A stretch of DNA of 64,000 nucleotides from Candidatus Latescibacterota bacterium (GTDB lineage Bacteria > Latescibacterota > UBA2968 > UBA8231). The stretch lies in NCBI GenBank assembly GCA_965204725.1, contig OZ242005.1, positions 1,728,001 through 1,792,000 of the forward strand. Reading direction: 5' to 3'. Below the pieces are notes generated by a model. That model was not told the origin of the DNA. It did no database searches and saw only the letters and a program-made list of their open reading frames with translations. This document shows, one piece after another, positions 32,641 to 39,664 of this stretch. The translations under genes were made by a program, and so were the position numbers. Within the stretch, counting starts at the first letter, position 1, and the number at the start of each line of letters is the position of its first letter.

Positions 32641-33301
32641 GCACGCACACAGCGCCCACCACCTACATCAGTTCGAGACCGCGCAGCAGCAATACGAAGC
32701 CGCCAGCCTCGGCATGTGGGCGTTCATCATCCAAGAAATCCTGTTCTTCGGGGGGCTGTTCGGCGCGTACACCGTGTATCGCAACACCTATATCGAAGCC
32801 TTTACCGCCGGCTCGCACCACCTCGACATCTTCTGGGGCACCTTCAACACCATCGTGCTAATCGCCAGCAGCCTGACCATGGCATTGGCTGTCCGCGCCG
32901 CGCAGACCGACGCCGGTCGCAACGCGATTACCGGGTGGCTCGTCGCCACGATCCTTCTCGGCTGCGCCTTCTTGGGCGTCAAGTACATCGAGTACAGCCA
33001 CAAGTGGCTCGATAACCTCATCCCAGGCAGCATGTTCCAGTGGAACGACCCCGCCTTCCCCGAGGTTTCGCTCGGCAACGCCAAAATTTTCTTCTCGTTC
33101 TACTTCGTGATGACCGGGATGCACGCCTTGCACATGGTCATTGGCGTTGGCATCATGCTGTGGATGATCGTCAAAGTCCAGCGCAACGAGATTTCGGCTC
33201 AGTACTTTACGCCGATTGAAATCAGCGGCCTCTACTGGCACTTCGTGGATATCGTGTGGATTTTCCTCTTCCCCCTGCTCTATCTGATCGGACGCCACTA
33301 A
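32633..33301 (+). CDS. coxC: Cytochrome c oxidase subunit III
   Basis: [28 protein letters not shown]; TTG start after AGGAGG. Confidence 0.92.
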
Positions 33302-33630
33302 TGTCTGAACATCACGTAGTTCCGCTCAAGATCTACTTTCTGATCTTCTTCGCCCTAATGATTGGCACCGTCCTCACGGTCGCCGCGGCCTTCGTCGATA
33401 TGGGCTTTTTGAATACGCCGGTCGCCCTGATCATCGCCTTAGTAAAGGCATCGCTGGTCATTTTGTTCTTCATGCACGTAAAATACAGCCCCAAGCTGGT
33501 CGGGCTGTTTGCCGTGGCCGGCTTCTTCTGGCTGTGCATCCTGCTGGCCTTGACCATGCAGGATTACTACACGCGCGGCTGGGGCGAGGAAGCACCGGTG
33601 GAGTTTTTGCAGGAAGGGTCGTTCTTCTAA
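33301..33630 (+). CDS. Cytochrome c oxidase subunit IV
   Basis: KASLVILFFMHVKY; 3 TMs. Confidence 0.88.
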   Translation: MSEHHVVPLKIYFLIFFALMIGTVLTVAAAFVDMGFLNTPVALIIALVKASLVILFFMHVKYSPKLVGLFAVAGFFWLCILLALTMQDYYTRGWGEEAPVEFLQEGSFF

Positions 33631-33720
33631 GTTTTAAGTCGAGCCTTACCAAGGCACGGGCGAGAGATACTCGTCGCCAAGCCGTGGAGATTCGGCAGCG
33701 CATCCCTGCCGCTTCTGCAT

Positions 33721-33757
33721 AAAAAAGCCCAAGCCGCTTTACACGGCTTGGGCTTTC
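33721..33757. terminator. Likely bidirectional terminator between the cox operon and the TA cluster
   Basis: AAAAAAGCCCAAGCCG...CGGCTTGGGCTTT hairpin. Confidence 0.75.
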
Positions 33758-33777
33758 GTCCTATACGCTTCCCCATT

Positions 33778-33956
33778 CTACTCTGTCGCTCGCGCCGCCT
33801 TGAGAAAGGCTACCACCTCCTTGTAGCACTCCTTCTTTTCGCCGCCCTCAATGTGGGAACCCCGGCCAGCCCATGTCAAGGCCATCCCTTCGGAGTTATT
33901 TTGTTTTGGGCGTTGACCTCGGCACCGAGATCCACCAAAAACTTTACTATCTCTAA
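33778..33956 (-). pseudogene. Frameshifted ankyrin-gene 3' remnant
   Basis: LEIVKFLVDLGAEVNAQ/(CAAAA duplication)/NNSEGMALTWA...EVVAFLKAAR; nucleotide copy of 34469-34551. Confidence 0.8.
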
Positions 33957-33970
33957 TTGAAGTGGAGAGA

Positions 33971-34189
33971 CTACAAACGCTCCCAAGTTGTCCGACTAAC
34001 ACCGGCCTGCGCTAAAATTTTATTCAAAAGCCCACGGCCAATGTCGCCACGATGTGGGTTAGGCAGGACAAGACGCGTCTTATCTCGGACCATATACTGA
34101 TGATTCCCCCCAGAATAGGGGCCTTCAAATCCCAATCTCCTCAAATAGCGAATAAGATCGCGGTGACTCAGCGGTCCAAATTGGGGCAT
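33971..34189 (-). CDS. HicA family toxin
   Basis: LRRLGFEGPYSGGNHQYM, PNPH, LLNKILAQAG; TGATG coupling to the upstream gene. Confidence 0.9.
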   Translation of the reverse strand: MPQFGPLSHRDLIRYLRRLGFEGPYSGGNHQYMVRDKTRLVLPNPHRGDIGRGLLNKILAQAGVSRTTWERL

Positions 34190-35172
34190 CACACCGATTC
34201 CGGTACGCCCTCCAAGCGCACCCCATCCACTTCAGGAAGCAGATGGTTCATTTTCAATCCGAGGGTGATCCAGCCCTCAAGCACGGATTGCAATTCTTCG
34301 CGGCACTGTTCCAAGGTCTCCGCATTTGCATACACGCCTTGAAATCCGACAATTTCTCCATAAAACGTTTGATCGTCGAGTACCTCGAATGTCGTGCGTC
34401 TCATCGCCAACTGGATATATCGGGCCATTCTGAGAAAATCTGCCATCTCCTGATAGTCGCCCGCTTCGGCCCATGTCAAGGCCGTCTCACCGGAGTTATT
34501 TCGGTCGTTGACCTTCGCACCACGGTCCACCAAAAACTTCACCACCGCTAAACGATCGCTAACGGCGGCCTTCATCAAGGCCGTCCAGCCGCGGTTATCC
34601 TTGGCGTGGATATCGCCCCCCTTGGAAATCAAAAACTCCACGACCGCTAAATGGCCACCCCAAGCGGCCCGCATCAAGGCCGTCTCGCCATCTTTATTAC
34701 CGATGTTAATATCGGCCCCCTTACAAACCAAAAAGCGCACTACCGCTAAACGGTCCTCCATAGCAGCCTTCATCAAGGCCGTCCAGCCGACGTTGTTTTG
34801 GGCATTGACATCAACATCAGCCCCGCTAGCCACCAAAAACTTCACTACCGCTAAATGGCCGCCTTGAGCAGCCCACATCAAGGCCGTCCAACCATTCGCA
34901 TCGCGGATGTGAATATCCGCCCCCTCGGCCACTAAAAAGCGCACCATCGCCAAGTAGCCATCTTGGGCCGCCCACATCAAGCTGGTCGTCTGTCGCGCCC
35001 CTTGCCCAATATAGGACTTGAGCAATGCCTGCACCGACATGTCTCGGTTGGCGGCGACCTGCTTGAGAGAATGGAGTACATCCTTGGGTATCTCTATGGA
35101 TACCGTTTCCGTCGCACGAGGACGGAACGCAAGCGCAAATTCTTCTTTCTGTTTGGTTTCAGGCGTCTTCAT
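34189..35172 (-). CDS. Chimeric protein: BrnA/RHH-like antitoxin (aa 1-60) + 6 ankyrin repeats + HicB domain (aa 252-327)
   Basis: RPRATETVSIEIP..RDMSVQALLKSYIGQG; TALMxAA..G/DxLAVVxFLVxxGADI repeats; YIQLAMRR..FYGEI.GFQGVYANAETLEQCREELQSVLEGW. Confidence 0.85.
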   Translation of the reverse strand: MKTPETKQKEEFALAFRPRATETVSIEIPKDVLHSLKQVAANRDMSVQALLKSYIGQGARQTTSLMWAAQDGYLAMVRFLVAEGADIHIRDANGWTALMWAAQGGHLAVVKFLVASGADVDVNAQNNVGWTALMKAAMEDRLAVVRFLVCKGADINIGNKDGETALMRAAWGGHLAVVEFLISKGGDIHAKDNRGWTALMKAAVSDRLAVVKFLVDRGAKVNDRNNSGETALTWAEAGDYQEMADFLRMARYIQLAMRRTTFEVLDDQTFYGEIVGFQGVYANAETLEQCREELQSVLEGWITLGLKMNHLLPEVDGVRLEGVPESV

Positions 35173-35452
35173 ATAACTTCCTTTCAGGAGGCGTTGCGCG
35201 ACGCGCAGATATGATGCGCGTCCATTGGTCTCGCTCTACGTAAACGACCAGCAAAATGCGTTGCTGAAACGAGTACCCAAGAATGAAATTCCGTTGTTCG
35301 GCACCCGTGGATGCGTCACCTATTTGATAAAAACGATCGAAGAAGACTTCGGCGGCTTCTTCAAAATGGACGTGATGCTTCTGCACATTGCTTTGGGCTT
35401 TGTTCTCATCCCACTGAAACCTGATGTCTTGAAGTTGGTATTCGATGTCCAC
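35159..35452 (-). CDS. BrnT family toxin
   Basis: FQWDENKAQSNVQKHHVHFEEAAEVFFD, RIISARRATPPERKLYE. Confidence 0.92.
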   Translation of the reverse strand: MDIEYQLQDIRFQWDENKAQSNVQKHHVHFEEAAEVFFDRFYQIGDASTGAEQRNFILGYSFQQRILLVVYVERDQWTRIISARRATPPERKLYEDA

Positions 35453-35475
35453 AAGACGAAGGATCGCCTCCCCTA

Positions 35476-35718
35476 CTACTCTCCGCCCTCGTAAAGCCCT
35501 TTGCGGCTAACCGCGTACTCGGACAATGGGGGGCAATCGGGACCAACACAATCCATAAAATCGTCTGCCAACTGATCGGCTAGGGCCTCAAATTTATCAT
35601 CCGATAGCGGCTCTACCTTAACCTGCTCCCATGGGACGAATTCGATCAGCACGGATTGCTTCTCACCATTAGAATCCACGACAAACTGGGATTTTTGAAT
35701 CCGGTCAGCAACGCCCAT
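35476..35718 (-). CDS. Small antitoxin-like protein, probably chimeric
   Basis: QFVVDSNGEKQSVLI..PWEQVK N-part and FEALADQLADD..LSEYAVSRKGLYE C-part each resemble TA antitoxin fragments. Confidence 0.55.
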   Translation of the reverse strand: MGVADRIQKSQFVVDSNGEKQSVLIEFVPWEQVKVEPLSDDKFEALADQLADDFMDCVGPDCPPLSEYAVSRKGLYEGGE

Positions 35719-35749
35719 TTCGTTCTTCTTTTTTGGTCCCAAACGGCCC

Positions 35750-35848
35750 TCACGCAATGTCGCGCACCAGCACCAAGATCGCCGCCTGCGGCACGACGAT
35801 AAACTTCTCGTCGTCGAACTTGATTTCTACCGCGTCTTTGCACAGGAA
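35750..35848 (-). repeat. 99-bp duplicate of the groES-like gene 3' end
   Basis: Matches 37792-37890 with 6 substitutions; includes the stop codon. Confidence 0.95.
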
Positions 35849-35855
35849 TTTTGAC

Positions 35856-36332
35856 CTACCCTTTATCTGTTCCATCTTCTTGTTTCAACTCTAATTCATC
35901 GAGAACGAGCACGTCCACATCCGCTACACGTTTGAGTGCTTTATCGTTGGTTAAGAAAACCTGACAGTTCGCTGTCTTAGCAACGGCAACTTGTAATGCG
36001 TCAGGTGTGCGTAACCCATGTTGTGCCCGGAGAATAGCCGCTTGCTCGGCTACTTTTGCGTCAACAGGCAACGTATAGAAGTTGGCACTGTGAAGCAACA
36101 AATCGCGATATTCTTTTTGCAAATGAATCTCTCCTTGTTCCAGAGGCTGAGTTAAAACTTCCGTCAAGGTAATGACTGAAGTAAATCCTGTAATGATTCC
36201 TTGATGAATTCTGTGAAAAATCTCGGTAACTAATCTATGGTACGCGGGATTCATTTCGATTAGATAGATGATGGGCGCCGTATCGAATCCTACCCTTGTC
36301 ACATCCGCCAATGCGTCATCCAGTGCGATCAT
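35856..36332 (-). CDS. PIN-domain (VapC-like) toxin
   Basis: FDTAPIIYLIE, TSVITLTEVL, LRTPDALQVAVA, FLTND. Confidence 0.92.
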   Translation of the reverse strand: MIALDDALADVTRVGFDTAPIIYLIEMNPAYHRLVTEIFHRIHQGIITGFTSVITLTEVLTQPLEQGEIHLQKEYRDLLLHSANFYTLPVDAKVAEQAAILRAQHGLRTPDALQVAVAKTANCQVFLTNDKALKRVADVDVLVLDELELKQEDGTDKG

Positions 36333-37464
36333 GGTTGGTATCCCATTCTTCACGAAGACGATCAACGTACGTTTGAGCATCTACCCCTTGCCAAATCTCT
36401 CTACCTAATCCACGCAACTCCAGAATACTCCGTTTTTTAGGCTCCTGTTGGGCGATGAGAGCCAATTTTAACCGGCGCAGATGCTCTGGCGAAGGATCCC
36501 ACCAAATAGGATTTGCCAACGATCCTTCTTGGCCTCGTAGCCTATCGTTGCACCGCTTCGTTTCCTTTGAATCTGCACGCGATTGCACATCTCCAACCTT
36601 TGCTAGGCGATGCAGGGGGACCGGCGTGTCATGGGTCAATTCTTCATAGAGACGGTTGCGTAACCATGCGACGTTCCGAGGTATGAGGTTATGGCCAAAC
36701 AGTTGGTTGGCAACATTCCCAATGCATCCATAGGTAGCCAGATGGCCAAATGGAATTTGCGTAATGATCAGGGCTACATGCCATCGCCACTCTCCCTTAG
36801 AGTTTCGCAACTGTGCTTCAATACCTTGCAAATCTTCTTCAATACCCTGCAAATCTTCTTTCGTAGTTTTTTTTATTGTATCGCAGTACTGGGCAAGCCT
36901 TTCGGCTACTTCATTCCCGAATTTTTCCAGCCGGGAGTCTAGGGATTCTCGCGTCTGTAGCAGCGACTCCTCCAACGCCTTGATACGTCGCTGTAGATGA
37001 GGATGAGGAACCATGGCGTATAGTTGCTTAGCCACTTCTAGGTCCAGCTCAATCCGACCTATCGAGTTGTAGAGGTAAGGGAGCTTGTTCCTGTACTCTT
37101 CCACCTTCCCCCCCACCAACTCATTGATCGCATCCCAGTCGAAGATGATAGGCGGCCGCTCCTCAGCAGGGATTAGCTCAAACCCCCTCCTCCACTCCTC
37201 GGCCTTCTTCAGCAGAGCAGGCAGACGTTCCGGCCAGTCGTGGAGCATGTTCGGCGAGAAGTCGGCTCCGGTAGGCCAAGTTGGGACCCCATCGTCCAGA
37301 TAAACTTGGTTGAACAGTTTGAGGTCCTTTAGGGGACTATATATCCGGCCTGATAAGATAGGACGAAGATCGGCCTCTTGGCATGTACCGTCCTCAAAGG
37401 AGGCCCGTAGCTTGTAGGGACCTATCACTTCCAGACGGATCACTTTATGAAGTTTATAATCCAC
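36316..37464 (-). CDS. Chimeric protein: DUF2442 (aa 1-91) + coiled coil + alkyltransferase-like DNA-binding domain + VapB-like tail
   Basis: YKLRASFEDG..PLKD..FNQVYLD..TWPTGADFSP; QIPFGHLATYG..PRNV..PLHRL; RSILELRGLGREIWQGVDAQTYVDRLREEWD. Confidence 0.8.
   Translation of the reverse strand: MDYKLHKVIRLEVIGPYKLRASFEDGTCQEADLRPILSGRIYSPLKDLKLFNQVYLDDGVPTWPTGADFSPNMLHDWPERLPALLKKAEEWRRGFELIPAEERPPIIFDWDAINELVGGKVEEYRNKLPYLYNSIGRIELDLEVAKQLYAMVPHPHLQRRIKALEESLLQTRESLDSRLEKFGNEVAERLAQYCDTIKKTTKEDLQGIEEDLQGIEAQLRNSKGEWRWHVALIITQIPFGHLATYGCIGNVANQLFGHNLIPRNVAWLRNRLYEELTHDTPVPLHRLAKVGDVQSRADSKETKRCNDRLRGQEGSLANPIWWDPSPEHLRRLKLALIAQQEPKKRSILELRGLGREIWQGVDAQTYVDRLREEWDTNHDRTG
36816..36860. repeat. 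In-frame 21-bp tandem duplication (EDLQGIE x2)
   Basis: CTTCAATACC(T/C)TGCAAATCTT twice. Confidence 0.9.
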
Positions 37465-37469
37465 TTGTT

Positions 37470-37752
37470 TTATCTCTCTGGCGGCTCAATAGGATCGGGG
37501 ACGACGCCTTGCTGCAACTGTTCCCAAGCAGCTTCCAGATCTTCTACATGATCTTCAGCCCAGTTCATCACTTGTCGATGCTTATTCCTTGGCAGTGAAC
37601 CCCCTATTACCTCTATATTGCCTGAATCAACGGCATAAACAGCCTCATCCCCCGAATAACTCGCATGAAAGTGCGGTCGATGGTGAGGGCTACCTACTTC
37701 CGAGAACATTCGGTCAGATAGTGATTCCATAAAACTCCGCAAGTTTCGGCAT
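37470..37752 (-). CDS. DUF4160 family protein; canonical start (37752) interrupted by a 4-nt insertion, in-frame alternative start at 37730
   Basis: MPKLAEFYGITI|RMFSEVGSPHHRPHFHASY..GSLP..VMNWAEDH...PIEP. Confidence 0.8.
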
Positions 37753-37791
37753 AAAACTCCGTTAAACAGAGTCGATTCAAGGCTTGCTTCG

Positions 37792-38154
37792 TCAAGCAAT
37801 ATCGCGCACCAGCACCAAGATTGCCGCCTGCGGCACGACGATAAACTTCTCGTCGTCGAACTTGATTTCCACCGCGTCCTTGCGCAGGAAAATGGCGTGA
37901 TCGCCCTTTTTGGCTTGGAGGCCGATGTAGCGCATCTGCTCGCTCCCCTCCTCCCAAGGTACGCCGTCGTCATCGGCCTTCGGCGGCAAGGGAACGCCCG
38001 GCCCCACCTCTTCGACGCGCCCGCTTTGCACGTTCTCCTTTTCCAAAGCGGTCGGCGGCAAATAAAGCCCCACGGCCGTGCGCTCTTCCATGTCGTCAAC
38101 CCGGATGAGTACGCGGTCGCCGACTACGTATAGTTCTTTGTCGCCCCGGATCAT
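37792..38154 (-). CDS. GroES-family co-chaperonin (no adjacent groEL)
   Basis: VVGDRVLI, ERTAVGLYLP, SGRVEEVGPG. Confidence 0.85.
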   Translation of the reverse strand: MIRGDKELYVVGDRVLIRVDDMEERTAVGLYLPPTALEKENVQSGRVEEVGPGVPLPPKADDDGVPWEEGSEQMRYIGLQAKKGDHAIFLRKDAVEIKFDDEKFIVVPQAAILVLVRDIA

Positions 38155-38155
38155 T

Positions 38156-38413
38156 TCACCTCGTTAGTAGCGGCAAAAGCTGATTGACTAGCACGGCAAC
38201 CACGACCGCGGCGGCGATCTTCCAGCCGAGCTTGTTCAGGTCATCGCGCACTTTGTTTAGCTCACCGCGTACTTTGTTTAGCTCGCTGTGCATTTCTCTG
38301 CGCAGGTCTCCTAACTGATCTTCTACGCGGCCCAACCGTTCGTTCATCTGCCGCATTTCGCCGCGCAATTCGCCTAAATGCTCGGCGCGTTCTTCTGTCT
38401 CGCTCAAGGCCAT
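38156..38413 (-). CDS. Small coiled-coil protein with C-terminal TM
   Basis: Heptads, ELNKVR repeats, hydrophobic C-terminus; GAAAGGAG RBS. Confidence 0.75.
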   Translation of the reverse strand: MALSETEERAEHLGELRGEMRQMNERLGRVEDQLGDLRREMHSELNKVRGELNKVRDDLNKLGWKIAAAVVVAVLVNQLLPLLTR

Positions 38414-38449
38414 GCTCCACGCTCCTTTCTTGGGTAATCCGTTGAGTTC

Positions 38450-39664
38450 CTAGGACGCCAGTCGCAAACACTCGCCGTAGCGCTCAAAGCGCTCCCCTTC
38501 CTCCTCGGCTGGATCGACGTACTTGAGCCAAAGGGCGCTGTCCTTCTTGGCACCGCTGAGGTCGCGGCGGCTGCCCAAGTGGCTGGGATCCGCGCCGTTC
38601 CACACCACTTGGCCGTCCTGCATGTAGATGAACTCCCCTCGATAGCGGTCGATTAGCGGCTGCTGTTGGTCTTGGTAGATCAGCCCCTGTTCGCAGGTGG
38701 TGCGCCGCCAGTTGGCCACGGTGGCGTCTGAGTCCGTAGATACCGAGTCAAATTCGGCCAGCGGCGCCTCGACCTCGCTCGCAAAGTCAATCTCGGCCAA
38801 ATCCACCGTGCCAAAGCCGCGCTCGGCCGCGATCAGCAGGTGATTGCGGTCGCGGCGGAAAGGCGGGGTCGGCCAATCGGATTGGGGATCGTGGCCCATC
38901 AAGGTCATGCCGCAGGCGTCGGTCGCCACCGGGTGATCGCCGGCCATCAAGGCATTGCAAATCCGGCCCTCGCCGCCCCATTCGCGGCCCCATTGGCCGG
39001 TGAGGGCCTCGACGATGTTGAGGCAGGGCTTGGTAATCAGGCCCAAGTCCGGCAGGACGTAGGAAAGCCGGATTAGGTGGTGATAGTACGAGCGCGTCCG
39101 CCCTTCCGGCGGGATCATCGGCGGCAGGCCAAAGAGGTTTTTCAGGGTCAAGGTAATGCCCATGAAGGCGTGGTTCTTCATCTTGGCGATGGATACCATC
39201 TCATCGGCCTCGGCAAAGACCGAGTTGAGCACGTATTGGTCGAACATGCAGCCGCCGTCCGGCACGGCAAAGGTAGTAAAGGGCGGCAAATTGCCATCGA
39301 CAAAGCGGACGCCAAACTCGTCCAACAAGTAGCGGTAGTTAAAATCGTCTGGGGTCACGTGGCCGTTGCCGTAGGGATAGGTATCTACGGCCACGAGCTC
39401 GGCCGTCGTCCGCTCCCGCAACAGGCGCAACACCGCCCGAGCCATGGCGTCATCGACCAATTCTCGGCGGCGACCGGCGAAATACTCAACGCGCTCCGGC
39501 GGCTTAATCATGTTGAATTTCAGGGCGATCCGCCGCGCTTTGGCCAACTTCTCCCACGAGCGGTCCAGCGGTTCGGTCGTGCGCTTGAGCACTTGGTATA
39601 TCTCCTCGTCGCTGGCTTGATGATCGCAATGCGACGCTCGGACCTTGTACTGTTTGTCGTTCAT
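38450..39664 (-). CDS. DUF362 domain protein
   Basis: IALKFN, SIAKMKNH..GITLTLKNLFG, DHPVATD. Confidence 0.8.
   Translation of the reverse strand: MNDKQYKVRASHCDHQASDEEIYQVLKRTTEPLDRSWEKLAKARRIALKFNMIKPPERVEYFAGRRRELVDDAMARAVLRLLRERTTAELVAVDTYPYGNGHVTPDDFNYRYLLDEFGVRFVDGNLPPFTTFAVPDGGCMFDQYVLNSVFAEADEMVSIAKMKNHAFMGITLTLKNLFGLPPMIPPEGRTRSYYHHLIRLSYVLPDLGLITKPCLNIVEALTGQWGREWGGEGRICNALMAGDHPVATDACGMTLMGHDPQSDWPTPPFRRDRNHLLIAAERGFGTVDLAEIDFASEVEAPLAEFDSVSTDSDATVANWRRTTCEQGLIYQDQQQPLIDRYRGEFIYMQDGQVVWNGADPSHLGSRRDLSGAKKDSALWLKYVDPAEEEGERFERYGECLRLAS

Follow-up and report, generated by a model that had tools for sequence, protein, structure and literature searches.

Two adjacent toxin-antitoxin operons with putative two-headed antitoxins, probably formed by end-to-start gene fusion, in a sponge-associated Latescibacterota bacterium

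Introduction

To our knowledge, type II antitoxins have been described as serving one toxin each. In the canonical BrnT-BrnA, HicA-HicB, DhiT-DhiA and VapB-VapC pairs the genes overlap or nearly touch; BrnT and DhiT precede their antitoxins, and HicB and VapB-like proteins precede their toxins. Here, we analyzed a locus with the same toxin families, gene spacing and gene orders, in which, unlike in the canonical pairs, a single polypeptide unites the antitoxins of two pairs around a third domain, and the downstream antitoxin is without its own start and its first 12-15 residues. The locus lies at positions 33971-37752 of a 64,000-nt stretch of DNA (‘the window’; contig OZ242005.1, positions 1,728,001 to 1,792,000) of a Candidatus Latescibacterota bacterium (assembly GCA_965204725.1), a sponge-associated bacterium, and consists of two adjacent three-gene toxin-antitoxin operons.

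Among the closest described systems, dhiTA of Dickeya dadantii is an experimentally functional, toxin-first type II system (PMC8198452), and another study gives DUF4160 beside DUF2442 as the usual arrangement (PMC12065111). Toxin-antitoxin fusions have been catalogued, 195 in total and 32 of them BrnT-BrnA, with some in Porifera assemblies; the present locus shares with the BrnT-BrnA fusions the occurrence of gene fusion inside toxin-antitoxin loci, but those join a toxin to its own antitoxin, whereas here the toxins are separate and two unrelated antitoxin moieties are joined (PMC11980606). In the PanA/Panacea and NetFlax antitoxins a neutralising element likewise sits at one end of a scaffold domain, and Phd-C fused to SUMO still neutralises, i.e., a neutralising peptide grafted onto an unrelated scaffold works; these antitoxins serve one toxin each, and the consulted passages of that paper describe neither a second toxin gene nor a second neutralising head (PMC10440598).

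A literature search of open-licence PMC papers and bioRxiv found no report of antitoxin-antitoxin fusions that bridge two toxin genes. Fusions of toxins to their own antitoxins and multidomain antitoxins are already known; one protein with two unrelated antitoxin moieties between two toxin genes appears to be unreported.

Results

The first-pass annotation of the sequence had claimed two adjacent minus-strand sandwiches, each with a long open reading frame (ORF) that overlaps or nearly touches two toxin genes. This was confirmed by the ORFs, the Pfam matches and the gene spacing. In the direction of transcription (37752 to 33971) the order is DUF4160, Fus2, PIN, a 99-nt repeat copy, ORF93, BrnT, Fus1 and HicA. 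Module 1 comprises BrnT, Fus1 (ribbon-helix-helix (RHH)-ankyrin-HicB, 327 aa; complete ORF 34189-35172) and HicA, while module 2 comprises the DUF4160 protein DhiT, Fus2 (DUF2442-coiled coil-ATL-like-VapB-like, 382 aa; complete ORF 36316-37464) and PIN, all on the minus strand. The brnT gene shares 14 nt with that of Fus1, whose stop in turn runs into the hicA start (GTGTGATG), the Fus2 and PIN genes overlap by 17 nt, and 5 nt separate the DUF4160 and Fus2 genes. All four toxin-like genes (DUF4160, PIN, BrnT_toxin and HicA_toxin) exceed their Pfam cut-offs. Pfam scores (bits) were judged against the curated cut-offs, and NCBIfam equivalog cut-offs are given separately; G-numbers denote genomes (the window genome is G000), P-numbers database proteins and X-numbers sequencing runs.

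In module 1, HicA (33971..34192; 73 aa from a GTG, with an ATG one codon on) matched HicA_toxin PF07927 with 49.4 bits (cut-off 27) and is 75-79% identical to HicA from the stand-alone hicBA pairs of G010 and G011. BrnT (35159..35452; 97 aa) matched BrnT_toxin PF04365 with 87.9 bits (cut-off 34.5). The head of Fus1 (residues 1-57, 35002..35172) is a BrnA-like RHH, in which residues 19-55 matched CopG_antitoxin PF12441 with 23.7 bits, below the cut-off of 28 and over profile positions 40-76 of 79 only. Against BrnA (NCBIfam NF047399) the head scored 17.8 bits, under the cut-off of 60, and only the RHH part of the BrnA domain is present. This RHH is 75% identical to an RHH protein that adjoins BrnT in G036, and Fus1 takes the position of BrnA, directly downstream of brnT and overlapping it, as do its counterparts in G006, G023 and G036.

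The middle of Fus1 (residues 58-248, 34429..35001) consists of ankyrin repeats, which matched five ankyrin families (PF00023 and PF12796 with 157.7 and 170 bits, above the cut-offs), and repeat analysis (repeats D1 and D2) found five copies with a 33-residue (99-nt) period. A PDB sequence search with Fus1 returned ankyrin proteins only. The full-length structure model had a mean pLDDT of 72.8, with 80-98 in the ankyrin part. Ankyrin proteins are typical of sponge symbionts; Fus1 resembles them in its 33-residue repeats and in that its DNA occurs in sponge metagenomes, and differs from them in that the ankyrin part is fused at both ends to toxin-antitoxin DNA-binding and neutralising domains. 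The C-terminal part (residues 249-327, 34192..34428) is an N-terminal HicB moiety, where residues 251-313 matched UPF0150/HicB-N PF21748 with 90.6 bits (cut-off 27.3) over the whole profile (positions 1-64 of 64); compared with HicB that stands alone (88 aa), ~11-12 residues are missing from its start. Canonical HicB bears a C-terminal DNA-binding domain (RHH or helix-turn-helix). None was found in Fus1, in which 14 residues remain past the UPF0150 match, and the stand-alone 88-aa relatives are also without it.

In module 2, the DUF4160 gene (37470..37752) matched PF13711 with 60.5 bits (cut-off 23) and DhiT (NCBIfam NF048015) with 43.9 bits (cut-off 100). Its frame is broken near the 5' end. 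Position 37752, where the first-pass annotation ended the locus, is indeed the ancestral ATG, but it is not the start here: 4 nt inserted near 37713, behind codon 11, bring that frame to a stop at codon 13 (MPKLAEFYGITI and stop). The DUF4160 domain continues in the next frame, in which an alternative ATG at 37730 would give 86 aa covering profile positions 5-65 of 65. The insertion is absent from G019 and from the contigs of runs X3 and X4. PIN (35856..36332; VapC family, 158 aa from its likely start, the ATG at 36332, with the ORF open to 36380) matched PF01850 with 64.5 bits (cut-off 23.6). It has 1530 relatives, the best of which is 158 aa long and 99% identical, and among 41 sequences, including the window protein, D17, E58 and D111 are invariant and D130 nearly so.

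Four parts were distinguished in Fus2. The head (residues 1-80, 37225..37464) is a DUF2442/DhiA-like antitoxin domain, with residues 8-74 matching PF10387 at 24.3 bits (cut-off 23.9) and DhiA (NCBIfam NF048016) at 21.3 bits (cut-off 200). DhiT/DhiA is the NCBIfam name of the DUF4160/DUF2442 pair, and both proteins score under these equivalog cut-offs. Residues 81-225 (36790..37224) form a linker and coiled-coil region with weak coiled-coil family matches, and the structure model has helices at its C-terminal end. The third part (residues 226-323, 36496..36789) is an ATL/MGMT-like winged-helix domain. Residues 228-288 matched DNA_binding_1 PF01035 with 14.8 bits (cut-off 27), and the cut-off was reached by five relatives among ten proteins scanned (P0010, P0011, P0016, P0017 and P0135; 27.7-32.6 bits). 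A model of residues 200-382 from 43 sequences had a mean pLDDT of 89.3, and ATL or MGMT chains filled Foldseek ranks 1-36, led by the S. pombe ATL 3gva (E 0.025, probability 1.00, target TM 0.52); there was no Foldseek match at E 0.001 or better. The VapB-like tail (residues 324-382, 36319..36495) had no Pfam or NCBIfam match, nor had its stand-alone relative P0131, and it thus falls in no described VapB family; ~15 residues are missing from its start compared with the stand-alone proteins of 72-89 aa.

Canonical MGMT has the acceptor motif PCHR. In Fus2 the aligned motif is P-L-H-R, nearly invariant over the 43 sequences, with Leu at the position of Cys and hence no acceptor cysteine of an active MGMT at the aligned site. 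This argues that the domain, which shares its fold with ATL and MGMT proteins, is ATL-like at most and would be a non-catalytic DNA binder. It is plausibly the DNA-binding part of a DhiA-type antitoxin. Stand-alone homologues of ~115-125 aa (P0010-P0148, aligned with Fus2 209-325) carry the same nearly invariant P-L-H-R. Among the best 150 of 1635 matches at E ≤ 0.001 in a library of cluster representatives, the ATL-like domain mostly stood alone at 115-125 aa, unlike in Fus2 where it lies inside an antitoxin, DUF2442 was mostly found in proteins of ~100-125 aa, and the DUF2442-coil-ATL-like combination occurred in one other representative cluster only (P0006). A scan of JGI metagenomes with alignment A1 gave a single locus, a stand-alone ATL-like gene of 116 aa with no obvious toxin-antitoxin neighbours. 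The 142-sequence alignment A2 was set aside for A3, as DUF2442 fragments were misaligned in A2.

The first-pass annotation had also held that all four pairs normally occur as separate two-gene units in the orders seen here, and such units were found in relatives. Stand-alone hicB (88 aa) is followed by hicA in G010 and G011, and nucleotide matches end at the HicB start in 10 of 40 other genomes. A VapB-like gene (72-89 aa) precedes an intact PIN gene in G036, and in G019 and G002 what follows it is a broken PIN remnant; in G014 a different antitoxin and PIN come next. BLAST found no PIN homologue in G012, G042, G031 and G023. DUF4160 is accompanied by a DUF2442-coil-ATL-like protein (325 and 332 aa, ending in WW-P-A) in G021 and G012, and G009 and G044 have a shorter, DUF2442-coil version of 204-206 aa.

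Comparison with these stand-alone forms placed both fusion junctions. In Fus1, the last ankyrin helix (...ADFLRMAR) leads directly into YIQLAMRR, at about residue 12 of stand-alone HicB, and in Fus2 the end of the ATL-like domain (...NPIWWDPS) leads into PEHLRRLK, at about residue 16 of the stand-alone VapB-like protein. With each join, the downstream antitoxin lost its start codon and first 12-15 codons, together with the intergenic DNA before it. From their ancestral starts the HicB and VapB-like moieties therefore can no longer be made; if they are produced at all, it would be as a C-terminal tail on the upstream protein. Both joins are of one kind: an upstream gene that is nearly complete continues in frame into a 5'-truncated downstream antitoxin, whose promoter region is gone as well. 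The anatomy proposed in the first-pass annotation, antitoxin, cargo and antitoxin between two toxins, was thus found twice, but its cargo is no insert between antitoxin halves: the middle is the part already carried by the upstream protein, as in G006 and G023 (ankyrin) and in G021 and G012 (ATL-like). A match in G023 that crosses the Fus2 junction (query 274-377) was rejected as a fusion, as it is a stand-alone VapB-like gene with an upstream ORF extension.

The same fusions were found elsewhere. In a collection of 5.8 billion proteins, the Fus1 junction and the BrnA head were found combined in 3 of 56 candidates (P0001, 328 aa; P0003, 326 aa; P0002, 226 aa, with about three ankyrin repeats fewer), and these are 88-99% identical over the queried Fus1 residues 228-327. 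The Fus2 junction occurs in 2 of 46 candidates (P0004, 377 aa; P0005, 384 aa, a cluster of 30 sequences), which are 82-84% identical over the queried residues 280-382, and also in a fragment, P0007. Scanning JGI metagenomes with the Fus2 protein gave 37 pattern matches and no confirmed relative. Within G000, four of the six UPF0150 matches lie in short frames, and the long frames hold only Fus1 and one weak match; likewise, five of the seven DUF2442 matches lie in frames of 86-147 aa, the long ones being Fus2 (389-aa frame) and one of 271 aa.

Independently built contigs (Logan) from public runs were aligned to 33700-38200. In X1, the probable source run, one contig spans 33700-35810 and another 35798-37852, both with 0 differences. 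Contigs of X3, a sponge metagenome of another study, span the same two intervals, with 64 differences and 3 gaps in the first and 25 differences and 4 gaps in the second. Both fusion ORFs and both junctions are thereby bridged in X1 and X3, and the only breaks between contigs fall at the 99-nt repeat, whose length makes this unsurprising. Because the contigs bridge the junctions and the junctions recur in database proteins, the fusions are not a misassembly.

The stretch between the DUF362 and groES-like genes and the coxIV-like gene was compared among 14 genomes of the genus, G000 included, and proved to be a hypervariable toxin-antitoxin island; both sandwiches were complete only in G000. 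The locus comprises ~700 nt with none of these genes in G012 and G021, and the ORF93-like gene only, plus unrelated DNA, in G001, G002, G003 and G013. G014 has a 139-aa ankyrin ORF, G011 has fragments of BrnA and ankyrin, and G006 and G023 have BrnT with BrnA::ankyrin (261 and 264 aa, with the native tail), without hicBA. G019 has DUF4160 with a different in-frame fusion, DUF2442-coil::ankyrin (424 aa). In G007, a VapB-like ORF overlaps out of frame an ankyrin-fragment::HicB ORF with a Fus1-type junction, and hicA is frameshifted. The closest relative, G046, with a groES-like protein 100% identical to that of G000, has no DhiT; its Fus2 homologue breaks off after residue ~198, a 581-aa gene carries ankyrin repeats at its C-terminal end, and of PIN only a fragment is left. 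The loci of G007, G011 and G046 thus hold out-of-frame or truncated wrecks. Ankyrin, present at the locus in G006, G023, G019, G014, G011 and G007, is its resident gene.

Several traces of recombination were found at this island. A frameshifted relic of the native ankyrin 3' end (last repeat and tail; 33778..33960, minus strand) adjoins hicA on its downstream side and is 74-79% identical to 34467-34551 (repeats D3 and D4). The native ankyrin tails of relatives match this relic at the nucleotide level and not the internal tail of Fus1, which suggests that an ankyrin-tail::hicB-hicA segment recombined into the last ankyrin repeat, displacing the native tail. Module 2 sits between two copies of a 99-nt repeat (35750-35848 and 37792-37890; 94% identical, spacing 2042 nt), a duplication that looks like the single-crossover insertion of a circular piece carrying the groES-like 3' end. 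The GC content is 0.46-0.53 over 35000-37750 and 0.57-0.65 in the flanking housekeeping genes, which fits horizontally acquired cassettes. For the DUF2442 part, synonymous divergence (dS) between G000 and G019 is 0.17-0.20, below that of the adjacent groES-like gene (0.48). G036 belongs to another family of the class, and its BrnT (dS 0.40) and PIN (dS 0.67) are as close to G000 as within-genus copies; this closeness suggests cassette exchange between co-occurring lineages. Taken together, the locus states, GC content, repeat, ankyrin relic and dS pattern indicate that cassettes are exchanged and recombined at the island, which is a recombination hot spot.

The VapB-like tail and PIN were folded together with custom alignments of 10 and 41 rows. 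The prediction scored 0.90, with 0.00 for the best of three controls. Of 80 solved complexes 58 attained that mark, as did 2 of 110 mismatched pairs, calibration counts that apply only roughly with such alignments. The runs share at least 98% of contacts, and the partner pLDDT is at least 76. The interface comprises residues 21-52 of the tail (Fus2 344-375) and residues 17-28, 58, 108-111 and 129-130 of PIN, including the invariant D17, E58 and D111, and the residues lost through the Fus2 fusion fall outside it. The tail is thus predicted to cover the PIN active site. In this prediction, together with its place directly upstream of PIN, it would behave as a VapB-type antitoxin, and homologues are likewise placed in G036, G019 and G002.

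Among the full-length fused forms, to which the segment identities refer, Fus1 is 93-100% identical to G000 in the BrnA head, 85-90% in the ankyrin part and 89-99% in HicB, and Fus2 95-99% in DUF2442, 87-89% in the coil, 85-89% in the ATL-like part and 85% in the VapB-like part. The ratio of nonsynonymous to synonymous divergence (dN/dS) against relatives, mostly unfused homologues, was 0.15-0.53 across the toxin-antitoxin and middle segments (ankyrin 0.21-0.35, ATL-like 0.28-0.31, HicB 0.20-0.53, VapB-like tail 0.30-0.32, HicA 0.21-0.22, PIN 0.15, BrnT 0.31-0.41) and 0.04-0.06 for the groES-like gene. These values point to purifying selection on all parts.

Discussion

We consider it fairly probable that Fus1 and Fus2 are two-headed antitoxins that arose from end-to-start recombination joins and are held in place by their toxins; they probably function as bivalent antitoxins whose origin was a frozen accident. 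The hicBA and VapB-like/PIN cassettes, in which the antitoxin comes first, would have landed or recombined behind toxin-first pairs, and deletion or recombination would then have stripped the 5' ends of the cassettes. Presumably, only in-frame joins to an expressed upstream ORF kept the antitoxin tail made, hence only these would survive. The N-terminal head would serve the upstream toxin and operon repression, and the C-terminal head the downstream RNase-type toxin. With HicA or PIN active, a frame-breaking mutation anywhere in the long ORF should free a toxin, so that the whole ORF, middle domain included, would be locked in, with the downstream toxin guarding the upstream reading frame. Given the in-frame fusion in G019 and the wrecks in G007, G011 and G046, such a lethality filter is plausible, and recombination or deletion filtered by lethality, rather than a purpose-built sensor, is the most likely origin.

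Several observations weigh against this explanation. Full fusions were found in close relatives only, and the full Fus2 in 1 of 31 genus genomes (G000). The other fusions and wrecks at the same locus count against an optimised design. The BrnA head of Fus1 is the RHH alone, whereas the G036 homologue has ~44 more C-terminal residues, in whose place Fus1 has ankyrin. Of the proposed contacts, that of Fus1 with BrnT is the least certain. The Fus1 model has a pLDDT <50 at residues 1-25, 56-62 and most of 259-327, and is uninformative on both heads. VapBC complexes have already been solved, and the score of the tail-PIN prediction may reflect likeness to these rather than being proof of binding. 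The dN/dS values owe most of their comparisons to homologues outside the fusions, and none of the sequencing runs listed for the locus is recorded as RNA. DhiT is frameshifted in G000, so module 2 may guard PIN alone here, and in contigs of X4, a marine-metagenome population, brnT shows a 34-nt skip plus one inserted base (35288-35323) and a separate 1-nt insertion (35431). The toxin gene seems to be in decay there, so decay of toxins does occur in some populations.

Such defects lead to a reading of the modules as decaying relics, in which at least one toxin per module is inactive and the long ORFs are recent neutral scars that are still open. Besides DhiT in G000 and the BrnT indels in X4, the frameshifted HicA of G007 and the ankyrin tail relic beside hicA would fit it, as would the closest relative, G046, in which DhiT is gone, the Fus2 homologue is halved and PIN is mostly lost, the VapB-like genes that stand beside broken PIN in G019 and G002, and the lack of a BLAST match to PIN in four other relatives. 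We nevertheless regard it as rather unlikely. No stops interrupt the fused ORFs of G000 or of P0001-P0005, even where identity over the queried junction regions has dropped to 82-88%; dN/dS is well below 1 for PIN, HicA, HicB and the VapB-like tail; and the conserved acidic residues of PIN are present. The first-pass annotation had offered in-frame scars kept for their needed antitoxin ends as its second option. As an origin this agrees with what was found here, but the decay that came with it does not, since the fusions persist in several populations with every segment conserved.

Its first option was an adaptive tripwire or sensor, in which a trigger on the middle domain, by cleavage or occupancy, releases two toxins and the coupling itself was selected for; ankyrin would sense it by binding protein, and the ATL-like domain by binding DNA or damaged bases. 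The genome comparisons do not favour such a design, which we hold to be unlikely. The middle domains are conserved among the fused forms (85-90%, dN/dS 0.21-0.35), the same layout occurs twice, side by side, the ATL-like fold is confident in both the model and the fold search, and accessory antitoxin domains have been proposed as sensors (PMC10440598). On the other hand, the middle is already present on the upstream antitoxin without a second toxin (ankyrin in G006 and G023, ATL-like in G021 and G012), the number of ankyrin repeats varies (226 versus 326-328 aa), the locus holds many other accidental joins and wrecks, DhiT is broken in G000, and PADLOC ties neither module to phage defence, with generic ankyrin and coiled-coil matches only. 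Nothing observed requires a purpose-built sensor. It is improbable that the middle domain of a true bivalent antitoxin acts as a shared switch, whereby a single event would release two toxins of different mechanism, be it a phage or host protein that binds or cleaves the ankyrin part or the engagement of damaged or foreign DNA by the ATL-like domain; the downstream toxin would then, as a by-product, be a frame guard that makes a symbiosis-type ankyrin gene very hard to lose. An artefact of assembly or gene calling, with a chimeric contig or collapsed repeats yielding false fusions, is extremely improbable: ankyrin repeats and the 99-nt repeat are error-prone spots for assemblies and the Logan contigs stop at the latter, but single contigs hold each fusion ORF whole in X1 and X3, and identical junctions recur in the database, in five full-length proteins and a fragment.

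If Fus1 and Fus2 are indeed two-headed antitoxins, a natural protein with two unrelated neutralising heads between toxin genes would represent a new wiring. The layout, doubled side by side and present in several populations, would couple the fate of two toxins, and the long ORF would be hard to lose, as an upstream frame break would stop the synthesis of the neutralising tail. The locus would provide a concrete natural example of toxin-antitoxin islands evolving by end-to-start gene fusion under a lethality filter, and of how a passenger gene, here a sponge-symbiont ankyrin protein, can be locked in. It also raises the testable questions of whether neutralising elements can be chained on one scaffold, and whether the loss of the upstream toxin, as with the broken DhiT, leaves the rest held by the downstream toxin.

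Neighbouring features and minor observations

ORF93 (35476..35757, minus strand; 93 aa) is a shortened copy of the gene that directly follows the groES-like gene in relatives, and had no Pfam, NCBIfam or PADLOC match. Its homologues are longer (matches spanning 121-129 aa in G023, G001 and G002) and start at the groES-like stop codon. ORF93 may be the head of the brnT operon. An Rfam scan of 33000-39000 found no RNA families, and a promoter and terminator scan was uninformative (1 promoter-like match versus 3.5 expected, 6 terminator-like versus 5.4 expected). The latter missed a hairpin read from the sequence at 33721..33753 on the minus strand, with a GC-rich stem of 10 bp, a loop of 7 nt and a run of T behind it; the hairpin comes after the relic of the ankyrin tail, in the interval that separates the gene array from the convergent coxIV-like gene.

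The groES-like gene (37792-38154; PF00166) ends in copy A of the 99-nt direct repeat (37792..37890, repeat D5), its true 3' end, and copy B (35750..35848) is the duplicate. Fragments of the coxIV-like 3' end (residues ~86-124) on the other border of the island, in G023 (L018, 7993-8133) and G007 (L019, 4950-5057), mirror this groES-like 3' duplication of G000. In the ATL-like family, one member of 482 aa (P0039) has an N-terminal CHAD domain. In G014 (L041, 1592-2543), the VapB-like gene is followed by an ORF that opens with the first ~7 PIN residues (MGPSTVI) and, as judged by eye, continues as a small antitoxin-type protein; the next gene, of 164 aa, is PIN-like by eye (MFAIDTN). This arrangement looks like one cassette nested in frame inside another.

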